Positions 6,376 to 34,373 of a DNA stretch of 64,000 nucleotides are shown here, piece after piece. Below the pieces are notes generated by a model that made no database searches, was not told the DNA's origin, and was given only the letters and a program-made list of their open reading frames with translations. The stretch comes from Myxococcota bacterium (GTDB taxonomy: Bacteria > Myxococcota_A > UBA9160 > UBA6930), in the NCBI GenBank assembly GCA_965223705.1, contig OZ245015.1, forward strand, positions 3,488,001 through 3,552,000, given 5' to 3'. Numbering within the stretch: the first letter of the stretch is position 1; the number at the start of each line of letters is the position of its first letter. The position numbers and the translations under genes are program-made.

Positions 6376-7524
6376 ATGCACTTGAGCCGCGATCGAATTC
6401 TGACGACCCACGTGGGCAGCCTACCCCGTCCACCGCGCCTCAGTGAGATCCTCCTCGCCAAGGAGTTCGGCGAAGCGTTCGACCCGGACGAGTATCAAGC
6501 TGAAACACGACGTTCCGTGCTCGCCGCGGTGAAGCGTCAACGCGAAATCGGCATCGACATCGTGAGTGACGGCGAGATGAGCAAGATCGGCTACGCCACG
6601 TACATCACCGACCGATGCACGGGTTTCTCGGGCGAAAGCCCACGCAACCCGCCGGCGGATCTCGCCCGATTCCCCGACTACATGAAGCGCTCCGTCGAAG
6701 AAGGGCAAGCGCCAAAGATCGCGCGTCGCATGTGCACGGGGGAGATCACCGTCCGCGATCGGACGGCCCTCCAAACCGACCTTCGGTTCTTTCGCGAAGC
6801 CCTCGATGAGATCGACGCGCCCTTTGCGTTCATGAACGCCGCGTCGCCGGGCGTCATCGCCGCCTTTCTCCCCAATCGCTACTACCCGAGCGAGGAGGCC
6901 TACCTCGAGGCGCTCTCAGCCGTGATGCGAGAAGAATACGAAGCGATTTCGAATTCGGGTTTCCTCTTGCAGATCGACTGCCCGGATCTCGCGATGGCGC
7001 GACACATCTGGTACAAGGAGCTGTCCGACGCGGACTTCGTCAAGCGGGCGGAAATGAACATCGACGTTCTGAACGCCGCCCTCGAGAACGTGCCCGCGGA
7101 TCGCGCGCGGCTACACCTCTGCTGGGGAAACTACGAAGGCCCCCACGACTGCGACATCGATGTCGCGAAGATCGTCGACGTCGTCACGCGGGCGAAGCCG
7201 CAAGCCATCTCCTTCGAGGCGGCCAACCCCCGCCATGCGCACGAGTGGCGAAGCTGGAGCGAAGCTTCCATTCCGGACGACAAGGTCCTCATGCCCGGCG
7301 TGGTCGACTCGACGTCGAACTTTATCGAACACCCGGAATACGTCGCAGAACGGCTCGGCCGGTTCGCCGACATCGTCGGGCGCGAGCGCGTCATCGCGAG
7401 CACCGATTGCGGGTTCGGGACCTTCGCGACCTACGGACGCGTCGACGCCGACATCTCCTACGCAAAGCTCGAGACGCTCGCCGCCGGTGCTGCGATCGCG
7501 AGCGATCGGCTCTGGGCTCGCTAA
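6376..7524 (+). CDS. Cobalamin-independent methionine synthase II family protein (single catalytic barrel; epoxyalkane:CoM transferase-like family)
   Basis: ILTTHVGSLPRP, HLCWGN zinc motif, TDCGFGT. AGGAG RBS before ATG 6376. Confidence 0.88.
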   Translation: MHLSRDRILTTHVGSLPRPPRLSEILLAKEFGEAFDPDEYQAETRRSVLAAVKRQREIGIDIVSDGEMSKIGYATYITDRCTGFSGESPRNPPADLARFPDYMKRSVEEGQAPKIARRMCTGEITVRDRTALQTDLRFFREALDEIDAPFAFMNAASPGVIAAFLPNRYYPSEEAYLEALSAVMREEYEAISNSGFLLQIDCPDLAMARHIWYKELSDADFVKRAEMNIDVLNAALENVPADRARLHLCWGNYEGPHDCDIDVAKIVDVVTRAKPQAISFEAANPRHAHEWRSWSEASIPDDKVLMPGVVDSTSNFIEHPEYVAERLGRFADIVGRERVIASTDCGFGTFATYGRVDADISYAKLETLAAGAAIASDRLWAR

Positions 7525-21273: not shown

Positions 21274-22017
21274 CTAGCCCGGTAGGTAGACGCCGCCGTT
21301 GATGTGGATCGTCTGTCCCGTGATGTAGGCCGCGTCTTCCGACAGCAGGAACGACACGAGCGCCGCGATCTCCGCAGGCTTTCCGGCCCGGCCCGCTGGT
21401 ATCGGTCGCGCCATCTCCTCGATCTCCGCATCGTTGAACGCGGCCTTGAGACCATCGTGCAGGATCAGGCCCGGCGCGATGGCGTTCACGGTGACGCCGT
21501 GCGCCGCCAGATCCAGGGCGACGGACCGCGTGTAGCCGGTCACCCCGGCCTTGGCCGCGGCGTAAGGGCCCTGTTCCCCGACCGCTTGATAAGCCGACTG
21601 CGACGCGATGTTCACGATGCGTCCGAAGCCGGCGTCCTTCATGGCGGGAGCAAACGCGCGCGTCAGGAAAAAGGTGCCATCCAAATTCACCCGCATCGTT
21701 CTCGCCCACACCCGCGATTCCTGACCCGCCCCGTGAATACCGGCGTTGTTCACGAGGTATGCGACGTTCGCGTCGTCGGCCCGCAAGGCGTCGGCCAGGT
21801 CGACGACTTGCTCTTCTCGACCGACGTCGAGTGGGTAAAAGCCGAGTCGGCTCCGTTGGTCGGACGGGAATTGCGCAAGCCATCCTTGCGCGCTCTCCTC
21901 CGCGCGGTCGCAGGCGATGATCGTATGACCCTCGGAGAGAAGGCGGCGAACCATCGCGGTCCCGAGCCCGCCGATGGCACCGGTGATCAAGACCTGTCCT
22001 TGGGGTCGTTCGGGCAT
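21274..22017 (-). CDS. SDR oxidoreductase (FabG-like)
   Basis: TGAIGGLG, NNAG, YAAAK, ITGQTIHINGG. GGAGGAG RBS before ATG 22017. Confidence 0.9.
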   Translation of the reverse strand: MPERPQGQVLITGAIGGLGTAMVRRLLSEGHTIIACDRAEESAQGWLAQFPSDQRSRLGFYPLDVGREEQVVDLADALRADDANVAYLVNNAGIHGAGQESRVWARTMRVNLDGTFFLTRAFAPAMKDAGFGRIVNIASQSAYQAVGEQGPYAAAKAGVTGYTRSVALDLAAHGVTVNAIAPGLILHDGLKAAFNDAEIEEMARPIPAGRAGKPAEIAALVSFLLSEDAAYITGQTIHINGGVYLPG

Positions 22018-31927: not shown

Positions 31928-31977
31928 TATTGAAGTCATCATCAATAAAAAATGTGCAGAGTGGGATACGTCCCACT
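31928..31977. promoter_or_regulatory. Two palindromic operator-like sites in an AT-rich divergent promoter region
   Basis: TATTGA-N8-TCAATA (31928-31947) and AGTGGGA-TACG-TCCCACT (31960-31977). Confidence 0.6.
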
Positions 31978-32062
31978 TTTTCAATGGACAGCTTTGTGGT
32001 TGCGGTCCCACCAGCTCCGGCAGAACAATCGAGTCGCCGTTGCCCCGGACGGGAGAAGCGTC

Positions 32063-33469
32063 GTGACCGATTCCCGCAGCCCCGAGCCCACCCTCCTCGA
32101 TGCGATCGCCGGCTACTGCCGCGCCACCGGCCTCGCGGAGTCGACCTTCGGCCGGCAGGCGGTAAACGACGGCAAATTCGTTGCCCGGCTCCGGAATGGA
32201 TCGCGCATCACGCCCGAGACGCTGACTCGCGTCACCGAGTTTCTCCGCGAACACGGGGGGCCGGAGACCAGCGCGACACCACCCGAACTGATGCCCCTAC
32301 TCAAGGTCGCTTCGCCCGATCGAGCCGCGGACGGAGCCGGTGCCGCCCCGGAACGATCGTTTCGGTTCTTCGACAATCGCCAAAAGTATCTGCTGTTCGT
32401 CAACACCTGCGGTGAAAAAGAGGTCGTCGCTCAACGGGTCGGTCACGAGCTCAGCCACGTTCACCCGGAGCCACCGGCGCTGCGCGTTTTTGACGCGGGG
32501 ATGGGCGACGGCTCGGTGCTCGCAAACGTGATGCGCGAGATGCACCGTCGCTTCCCGACGATGCCCTTCTACATCGTCGGCAAGGAGATCAGCCTGGAAG
32601 ACGTTCGGCTCTCTTTGCAGAAGGCCGTCGATCGCTTCGCCGAACACCCGGCCACGGTGCTGGTCGTGACCAACATGTACTACTCCGAGGCCCCGTGGCT
32701 CACGCCCAAGAAAGTCGAAGCCGCGACCTCGATGACGTGGGAAGAGGTCCCGCTCTCGGGCACCACAGCGCATGATTTCGCCGAGCAGATCAACGCCCTC
32801 GAGCCGCTGTTGACGGATTCCTGGAAAGCGCGGCACAGCCCGCGGACAGGCAACCCCATCTACGAACGCCCGACGGCGCTGGTTCTCTACCGAGAGGACT
32901 ATCGCTTTCTTCTGAACGACGTCATCCCGAAGCGAGGCGCTGCGTTGGCGGATTTCGATCTGGTGATCGCTTCGCAGCCCTACCGCGCGCGCGTGAGCGC
33001 GGAATTCAAAGCGCAAAAAGTCATCGCGCCGTTGGTGCGCGCCCTTCGACCCGGCGGCCGTCTGATCGGCATTCACTCGTGCGGCGACGACCCCGGACTC
33101 GAAATCGTCCAACAGGTCTGGCCCGGCGAGGATCCGTTCATCAACGGGCGACACGATGTACTGCGCGCGCTCAAGTCCGAGCTCGGGCGCGACGCGCGTC
33201 GTTACAACTTCAATGCCTACTCGGACGCCCGAGCGCGCTTCCGCTACGAGATGCACACGCTGCCGAGCGAGGTGGAGTCGAGTATCGGCACCTCGACCCT
33301 CTTCGCCGCGTGGAACGCCGCCGTGTACGTCGCCCAAATCGACGACGAGCGGCTCGGCGCCGTCATGGGCGACCGAGGTTACTTGGACGCGACTCGCGAC
33401 GTGCTCCGACGCCACGCCAAGTTGTGGTTCCGGGATGAGTCCTACACCGTCTCGCGCAAGCGGGATTGA
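32063..33469 (+). CDS. Hypothetical protein: N-terminal Cro-like HTH fused to a class I SAM-dependent methyltransferase-like domain
   Basis: N-terminus LLDAIAGYCRATGLAESTFGRQAVNDGKFVARLRNGSRITPETLTRVTEFL; motif I-like VFDAGMGDG, acidic GKEIS, FDLVIASQPY, ALRPGGRLI. GTG 32063 follows GGGAGA. Confidence 0.72.
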   Translation: MTDSRSPEPTLLDAIAGYCRATGLAESTFGRQAVNDGKFVARLRNGSRITPETLTRVTEFLREHGGPETSATPPELMPLLKVASPDRAADGAGAAPERSFRFFDNRQKYLLFVNTCGEKEVVAQRVGHELSHVHPEPPALRVFDAGMGDGSVLANVMREMHRRFPTMPFYIVGKEISLEDVRLSLQKAVDRFAEHPATVLVVTNMYYSEAPWLTPKKVEAATSMTWEEVPLSGTTAHDFAEQINALEPLLTDSWKARHSPRTGNPIYERPTALVLYREDYRFLLNDVIPKRGAALADFDLVIASQPYRARVSAEFKAQKVIAPLVRALRPGGRLIGIHSCGDDPGLEIVQQVWPGEDPFINGRHDVLRALKSELGRDARRYNFNAYSDARARFRYEMHTLPSEVESSIGTSTLFAAWNAAVYVAQIDDERLGAVMGDRGYLDATRDVLRRHAKLWFRDESYTVSRKRD

Positions 33470-33479
33470 GGCCGGCGAT

Positions 33480-34373
33480 TTGACCGAGAGCGCGGAGGCT
33501 CGAGCGGAAGAACGAGGACGACCTTCGCGAATTCGCGACATCAAGGCGCGGCTCGTCGCACGCGGATCGGTCGAAGTCGCTGCGGGCCGGCTCCGAAAGC
33601 TCGGCGAGTCGGTGCCGCTTCTCCCGGAAGGCTGCTCTGCGTACGTGCCCGCTCTGCCGGGTCAATCCTTCGACACGACCCTCGCGACGATCACCGCCCT
33701 TCGCGCCGCGGGGCTTCACCCGGTCCCGCATCTCGCCGCGCGCCAGGTCACATCGCGCGACGCCCTCCGAGCGTTCCTGCGCTCAGCGGTACGCGAAGCC
33801 GGAGTTCGCCGGGTCATGTTGGTCGGAGGGGATTCGCGAGAGTCGGGAATCTACCGCGATAGTCACGAGCTGTTGCGCGACGGCGTGCTCGCGAGTGAGG
33901 GTGTCGTCGAGATCGGGCTCGCGGGCTATCCCGAGGGCCACCCCTTCCACGGCGATGGCTTGTCGCTGCTCGCTGAGAAAGTGAACCTCGCGAGCGACCA
34001 AGGGTTGGACGCCTCCGTCGTCACGCAGTTTTCCTTTGCACCCGAACGCGTCGCGGCGTTCGCGCGCGAATCGGAAGAGCGGCTTCCCCGCGTGCCGCTG
34101 CACATTGGTATCGCGGGACCCACCGATCCCGTGGCGCTGCTTCGCTACGCGAAGCGCTGCGGCGTAGACGCTTCGCGCCGGGCGGCTCGACACCTCGGTC
34201 TCGGTGCTGCGCGCCTCGCCTTTCACACCGATCCCAGCGAACAGCTCGACGAGCTCGCCCGTCTCTGCGACGAGCGGCCCCATCACTCCGTCGCGGGTGC
34301 CCACTTTTTCGGCTTTGGCGGCTTGCTGCGAACTGCGCGGTTCATGGACGGCGTCGCGCGGGCGTCCCAGTAG
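33480..34373 (+). CDS. metF: Methylenetetrahydrofolate reductase-like protein (MetF family)
   Basis: SVEV, PVPHLAAR, VGGD, AGYPEGHP, VTQFSF, GIAGP. TTG start 10 nt after the upstream stop. Confidence 0.82.
   Translation: MTESAEARAEERGRPSRIRDIKARLVARGSVEVAAGRLRKLGESVPLLPEGCSAYVPALPGQSFDTTLATITALRAAGLHPVPHLAARQVTSRDALRAFLRSAVREAGVRRVMLVGGDSRESGIYRDSHELLRDGVLASEGVVEIGLAGYPEGHPFHGDGLSLLAEKVNLASDQGLDASVVTQFSFAPERVAAFARESEERLPRVPLHIGIAGPTDPVALLRYAKRCGVDASRRAARHLGLGAARLAFHTDPSEQLDELARLCDERPHHSVAGAHFFGFGGLLRTARFMDGVARASQ

Follow-up and report, generated by a model that had tools for sequence, protein, structure and literature searches.

A conserved gene joining a phage-type helix-turn-helix head to a methyltransferase-like body: a candidate ligand-controlled autoregulator of a methyl-group-handling operon

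A central question raised by a 64-kb stretch of the genome of a Myxococcota bacterium (the whole stretch is referred to here as the window) concerns a protein that joins a DNA-binding type of domain to a methyltransferase-like body just ahead of a one-carbon enzyme; namely, whether it senses methylation status, transfers methyl groups or does both. The gene, labelled gene X, encodes a helix-turn-helix (HTH) head and the body, and is followed by a gene for a methylenetetrahydrofolate reductase (MTHFR). With modest confidence, we favour a reading from sequence in which X would regulate its own methyl-group-handling operon under the control of a ligand and its body would also be an S-adenosylmethionine (SAM)-using N-methyltransferase. 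The module is real, conserved and apparently undescribed, and X works like the regulator SahR yet belongs outside the SahR family. Its features are as follows.

31960–31977, no strand: candidate operator O1, the perfect palindrome AGTGGGA-TACG-TCCCACT with 7-nt arms, conserved upstream of homologues
31996–32011, no strand: candidate operator O2, degenerate GTGGTT-N4-TCCCAC, 35 bp after O1 and over the putative −35 hexamer
32000–32029, + strand: putative promoter, −35 TTGCGG (32000–32005), 18-nt spacer, −10 AACAAT (32024–32029), from aligned upstream regions
32063–33469, + strand: gene X, 468 amino acids (aa), Cro-like head, Pro/Ala linker and class I methyltransferase-like body, from sequence and homologue alignment
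32087–32248, + strand: head, residues about 9–62, phage-type HTH-like domain (phrog_7669, E = 1.3e-6; 17 phage records)
32357–33466, + strand: body, residues about 99–468, from column conservation and ESM Atlas leads
33480–34373, + strand: type 4-like (S6MTHFR-like) MTHFR, 297 aa (PDB 7XG9, E = 8e-39)

The open frame spans 31952–33469 on the + strand, and the likely start codon of gene X is the GTG at 32063, preceded by GGGAG at 32051–32055. The initial annotation had described an open reading frame (ORF) of about 470 aa, a metF-like gene 10 nt after it and a perfect-arm palindrome about 85 nt before it, and all three stand: every motif that it quoted is present in the product, the downstream gene opens with a TTG 10 nt from the X stop, and the palindrome is O1. 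The degenerate O2 had gone unnoticed there. The name of the partner needs amending; it belongs to the MTHFR family (Pfam MTHFR, E = 2e-7) but is type 4-like and not an ordinary MetF.

Operator conservation was gauged in 80 GTDB loci, 76 of which combine a head with 330 nt of upstream sequence. The fixed pattern GTGGGA-N4-TCCCAC lies upstream of 44 of these 76 with no more than one mismatch (exactly in 23), and with a palindromic matrix, R-TGGG-M-N4-K-CCCA-Y, 67 of the 76 reach a score of 12 or more, compared with 0.07% of shuffles, the matrix having been trained on the same sites that it scored. O1 is the sole exact occurrence in the window and in the 4.56-Mb host genome, in which the pattern with up to one mismatch is found at 11 places; in a matrix scan of that genome O1 ranks top (24.2; next best, 15.1). 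Since at two mismatches the window count of 6 does not exceed chance expectation (mean, 3.1), the significance of O1 rests on conservation. A blind scan of genome G043 returned three palindromes, two of them before family members, and one of these two was a previously unseen copy heading X-MTHFR4-metK (MTHFR4 being type 4 MTHFR); taken together, the five genomes scanned had no excess of the pattern over its control. One genomic one-mismatch site (C1:3466515), inside an amidase-like ORF, was put down to chance.

A second site stands exactly 35 bp after O1 in 46 of the 67 O1-bearing homologues, its left arm turned into a TTG hexamer, and TAnnnT follows that hexamer after 16–18 nt in 37 of the 46. 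From this arrangement in the aligned homologues we infer that O2 probably overlaps the −35 box; a consensus promoter scanner found nothing in the region upstream of gene X. Rfam gave no match to the window region at E values up to 1, and a gathering-level scan of seven homologue loci gave just a tRNA; we conclude from these results that no riboswitch explains the palindrome. Upstream of headless SAR11-like genes the pattern was found in 0 of 56 regions (related, AT-rich sequences); among other headless loci it was found in one of five (L205), whose genome also holds a headed copy.

The head resembles small phage HTH proteins, as had been proposed from the sequence. Against stand-alone proteins of PHROG family 7669, found in 17 phage records, its identity is 29–41%; depositors annotated 11 of these records as ‘helix-turn-helix DNA binding domain protein’; the PHROG family itself carries no assigned function. 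In two phage loci inspected, the stand-alone head protein lies at or beside a divergent gene junction. The head of X differs from these proteins in being chromosomal and fused to a metabolic body, and none of the Pfam HTH models fits it; ‘Cro-like’ denotes a resemblance.

Class I SAM-dependent methyltransferases have a motif I of the form D-x-G-x-G-x-G and an acidic residue after strand β2. The body has FDAGMGDG at residues 143–150 as motif I, K174-E175, ASQPY at 303–307, and invariant E118 and D458. Conservation was counted in 28 headed and 26 headless sequences after dereplication at 80%, with three unclassified sequences excluded. D144, G146, G148 and E175 are kept in 26–27 of 28 headed and 25–26 of 26 headless sequences, and headless sequences have E118, G146, G148, E175 and Q305 in 26 of 26 each; headed and headless forms alike keep E118 (54 of 54), motif I, E175, N204 and Q305. 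For a headless homologue, all 10 named clusters listed by the ESM Atlas were class I methyltransferase-type or of no common family. An HTH fold for the head and a seven-stranded Rossmann-like fold for the body are predictions from sequence. The spacing of E118, Q305 and D/N458 would align them with Glu28, Gln143 and Asn283, which PMC9867436 gives as pocket residues of histamine N-methyltransferase (HNMT), a small-molecule N-methyltransferase; the correspondence is drawn from spacing and not from structure. X differs from HNMT in its DNA-binding head and in some 80 aa inserted ahead of the SQPY strand, and it matches no PDB chain in sequence.

Compared with the window proteins over 70 loci, the body has a median identity of 75% and the partner enzyme one of 46%. 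Headless copies occur in 5 of the 12 X-positive genomes of the phylum sample, and three of four headless-only genomes are without any head homologue. SAR11-like contigs carry headless X divergent from fhs (29 of 80) or behind a metY-like gene (17 of 80) and a hydrolase (22 of 80). Pelagibacter lacks metH and metE according to PMC5069961, and PMC3160333 proposes that it oxidises methyl-tetrahydrofolate (methyl-THF). Because the body persists without a head and keeps the full putative ligand residue set, it is probably more than a sensor, with a role independent of DNA. In one headless homologue (P0142), the N-terminus is extended by an Arg/Ser-rich segment that looks like a mitochondrial targeting peptide. 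In G331 (L205, L207) the headless copy keeps the operator and a headed paralogue about 40 kb away is without one, an arrangement in which regulation in trans is possible.

The match of the partner enzyme to 7XG9 (S6MTHFR) compares with E values of about 3e-5 for typical MTHFRs. According to PMC11868366, S6MTHFR oxidises methyl-THF, barely uses NADH and is an active monomer. The window enzyme has equivalents of the catalytic Glu21, Asp107 and Gln175 (57 of 57 aligned, 69 of 69 and 69 of 69 homologues) and of the Leu48-Pro49 loop, Cys219 and Phe269 (53, 64, 69 and 68 of 69, respectively). The equivalent of Pro268 is not kept in X partners (Gly in the window; Ser in 48, Thr in 19 and Pro in 0 of 69 homologues), hence the label type 4-like. 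The enzyme is predicted to oxidise methyl-THF to methylene-THF. As it would be of the methyl-THF-consuming type and the host already has a typical MTHFR along with metH, ahcY, MetE-like, GcvT-like, metK and fhs genes, the cassette would add a methyl-THF drain rather than a supply, and the suggested coupling to methyl-THF supply gives way to methyl-THF removal.

The coupling of the two genes is tight. MTHFR adjoins or overlaps X in 69 of 73 loci with room for it, lies 1.7 kb off in one and is absent from three. Type 4 MTHFR was found in 9 of 12 X-positive compared with 28 of 289 X-negative genomes overall, and in all four headless-only genomes. Both genes were absent from 40 of 40 host relatives searched, 24 of which have a completeness of 90% or more and a contamination of 5% or less; the pair therefore most likely came into the host genome together. 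The GC content around it gives no island signal, and a plasmid search for gene X gave no match.

Known type 4 MTHFR operons are built around demethylases. The X partner is like the MTHFR of ligM-metF-ligH (Sphingobium SYK-6, PDB 7XG9; PMC11868366), and dmt-mthfD-dhc-purU (Rhizorhabdus; bioRxiv 10.1101/537639) is mirrored in G331, where a headless copy leads X-metK-ahcY-MTHFR4-purU and MetK, X and AhcY occupy the demethylase slot. As in such operons, purU or fhs follows in some X loci (X-MTHFR4-fhs in L079). The difference is that the slot held by the GcvT-fold proteins LigM and Dmt is taken by the Rossmann-type X; no GcvT-like match was found in the 80 X loci.

X homologues occur with metF, metK, ahcY, MetE-like, fhs and purU genes, so the expected link to one-carbon and methionine genes was found. 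SahR and SamR, which control the proteobacterial SAM cycle in response to S-adenosylhomocysteine (PMC4239095), are likewise HTH domains fused to a methyltransferase-type domain, with a palindromic operator before their own operon and metK, ahcY and metF among their targets. X differs in its phage-type rather than ArsR head, in a body of 370 aa without a Methyltransf_11/25 match (the host SahR-like protein matches strongly), in an operator motif other than the SahR box, in the stand-alone headless forms of its family and in being found alongside SahR, both in the host and in 46 of 121 genomes. There, a SahR-like gene encoding an ArsR HTH and a methyltransferase domain lies directly upstream of metH (G000:C1:2733949-2734896; L221:950-1897); its product matches HTH_5 and HTH_20, X matches neither, and hhalign of the two gave a probability of 0.7% over 18 columns, at motif I only. 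The palindrome-like GATATTCGGATATC lies just before the start of this gene.

Operator-like sites were found neither before host metF, ahcY and metH nor before ahcY in four other genomes, and no top-25 matrix match lies near host metK, the promoter of which was itself not directly inspected. Given this and the SahR-like gene already before metH, X appears to act in the host as a local regulator and not a global sensor; the multi-operon regulon of SahR and SamR (ahcY, metH, metF, metK) has no counterpart for X there. In the alphaproteobacterial family of G307, which includes the genome of the Xanthobacteraceae record L061, the body is present in 86 of 121 genomes. Here 46 genomes have X and a SahR-like gene, 40 have X only, 34 have SahR only and 1 has neither, meaning that 40 of 41 SahR-less genomes carry X. 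In a sample of 20 loci of this family chosen on large contigs, the genes that X leads are type 4 MTHFR in seven of eight SahR-positive genomes and metK-ahcY in 9 of 12 SahR-negative genomes. We infer that the SahR-less genomes are relatives of Bradyrhizobium, Rhodopseudomonas and Nitrobacter; Table S1 of Leyn 2014 (PMC4239095) gives no MetJ, MetR, SahR or SamR for B. japonicum USDA 110, Bradyrhizobium BTAi1, R. palustris CGA009 or N. winogradskyi. The initial comparison of X to SahR is thus upheld as near-complementarity in one family and fails as a global methylation sensor in the host.

On the favoured reading, X would combine a phage Cro-like DNA-binding head with a SAM-binding class I methyltransferase-type body. 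Its dimers would bind O1 and O2 upstream of gene X, with O2 over the −35 box, and SAM or S-adenosylhomocysteine (SAH) bound in the body would most likely set DNA binding. In the host, the regulated unit would be X plus the type 4 MTHFR oxidising methyl-THF to methylene-THF; in other bacteria, X would head metK-ahcY(-metF), an operon under SahR elsewhere. Because the headless body persists with its putative ligand residues intact, the fused form would most likely do two jobs, acting as a SAM-using N-methyltransferase and controlling its own operon. The parts of this reading differ in strength: DNA binding by X is highly probable, its control by SAM or SAH is reasonably likely, catalysis by the body is evenly balanced and tetrahydrofolate (THF) as methyl acceptor is doubtful. 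A more specific version, which we regard as unlikely, would make the body an undescribed SAM:THF methyltransferase working with MetK, AhcY, type 4 MTHFR and PurU/Fhs in a route from methionine through SAM, methyl-THF and methylene-THF to formate, with homocysteine left over. The phage-derived head would then make the enzyme a regulator of its own operon, headed X would be the missing SAM-cycle regulator of SahR-less alphaproteobacteria, and the headless form would run the same chemistry in SAR11-like cells.

Three other explanations were weighed against the favoured one. X may be a non-catalytic, SAM- or SAH-sensing transcription factor convergent with SahR, with the headless forms being decayed, subunits or in some other job. 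Its near-complementarity to SahR, with X heading metK-ahcY where SahR was not found, fits this idea, as does L073, in which X-metK-ahcY-typical MTHFR reproduces the SahR core regulon (PMC4239095). Operator-like palindromes also adjoin the SahR box upstream of sahR in G041 (L171:1500-1515, score 12.7) and G117 (L228, 9.9), two of the seven genomes checked, with none before sahR in the other five. We nevertheless consider a pure sensor fairly unlikely, as it leaves unexplained the headless homologues, which keep every motif while being more diverse than headed forms (median pairwise identity, 48% versus 66%) and which persist in streamlined SAR11-like genomes; the only two sequences with broken motifs (P0136, P0141) carry a head. 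These two are head-bearing paralogues in which motif I and SQPY are degenerate, making them candidate non-catalytic or differently liganded regulators.

Eukaryotic MTHFR has a SAM-binding regulatory domain, and the body could play that part in trans, sensing SAM and adjusting type 4 MTHFR or a different methyl-cycle enzyme through direct binding, with the head adding autoregulation. The often overlapping gene pairs, the high constraint on the body and its survival without a head would also suit a binding partner; headless copies are mostly unlinked to MTHFR, three X-positive genomes do without the type 4 enzyme and S6MTHFR is reported to work as a monomer (PMC11868366), which makes this improbable. 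Still less probable, to the point of being remote, is an HTH-tethered methyltransferase that modifies DNA or RNA, similar to a restriction–modification methylase with an autoregulatory head. SQPY, which on this view would be an NPPY-type amino-methyltransferase motif, does stand at the expected [DNS]PP[YFW] place, and the head is phage-like. Against this, the neighbours of X are methyl-cycle enzymes, no nuclease or mobile-element family is among the common neighbours in the 80 loci, X has no plasmid match and the window body has no PHROG match.

Several observations weigh against the favoured reading. Nine of the 76 head-bearing loci have no scoring palindrome; the metK-ahcY clade has spaced half-sites in its place (at the gene in four of five), and two head-bearing loci (L207; G431) have not even a half-site. 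The SAM fold of the body rests on motifs and on Atlas leads with scores of 0.81–0.86, below 0.9 and thus of lead level, and Pfam gave weak matches (E = 0.01) in only 2 of 110 family members. Truncated gene calls may account for some of the headless database entries. The family tree, a quick search with midpoint rooting and long-branch warnings from which L158 was left out as too short, needs three head gains or losses, the order of which is not settled. Type 4 MTHFR is absent from three X-positive genomes (G101, G212, G307), which a strict methyl-to-folate enzyme role leaves unexplained. In the family of G319 it is present in 140 of 151 genomes and X in 4, so that near-ubiquity makes the co-occurrence of headless X with it uninformative there. 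Because kin are not independent, the complementarity with SahR in the family of G307 may be one loss in one clade.

The family is large. Homologues of protein X fall into at least 8000 clusters, and among the matches listed (119 beyond the query) identities are 71–78% and almost all entries are without names. In a set of 301 Pseudomonadota genomes the body was found in 12, plus one weak match. Searches of Pfam and NCBIfam with protein X, and of PDB sequences with X and with a 110-sequence profile, gave nothing significant, and literature searches, with most subscription papers and unseen supplements outside their coverage, did not find the family described. The analysis thus offers a functional hypothesis and a predicted operator for a conserved family outside Pfam, NCBIfam and PDB, and a candidate for the gap in regulon tables for Bradyrhizobium, Rhodopseudomonas and Nitrobacter, which have none of the four known methionine and SAM transcription factors. 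If true, X would be a second, independent design of HTH plus methyltransferase-fold regulator, here with a phage-type head. A catalytic body would give type 4 MTHFRs, known so far only alongside GcvT-fold or corrinoid demethylases, a further source of methyl-THF, and would open a way to use methionine as a one-carbon source.

Some further observations concern the distribution of these genes. The presence of type 4 MTHFR in 140 of 151 genomes of the G319 family is a wider range than the 68 homologues in PMC11868366 would suggest, and the reading frame of one X homologue of that family (L255, from G519) is interrupted by a TAA stop. MetE-like genes encoding only the catalytic domain (PF01717) were seen close to X, in both orientations, at 16 of the 80 loci (for example, L026:9714-10859, L073:6622-7809 and L203:9677-10792), and the host has several, one of them inside the window (about 6400–7420).

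Around the X–MTHFR pair, positions 22000–44000 of the window form a dense catabolic cluster in which a three-subunit molybdoenzyme-like set converges on the MTHFR gene. The cluster also comprises three cytochrome P450-like genes, of which Pfam confirmed one, together with flavin monooxygenases, amidohydrolases and a TetR regulator. We rejected a link between gene X and its P450, TetR and molybdoenzyme neighbours, since the clusters that recur often around X in the 80 loci do not include the upstream P450 or the downstream molybdoenzyme ORFs. About 50 kb upstream of the X–MTHFR pair (L081:7435-10001) lies what we take to be a benzoate-box-type cluster, with an HTH plus kinase-like regulator and an enoyl-CoA-hydratase-like gene.

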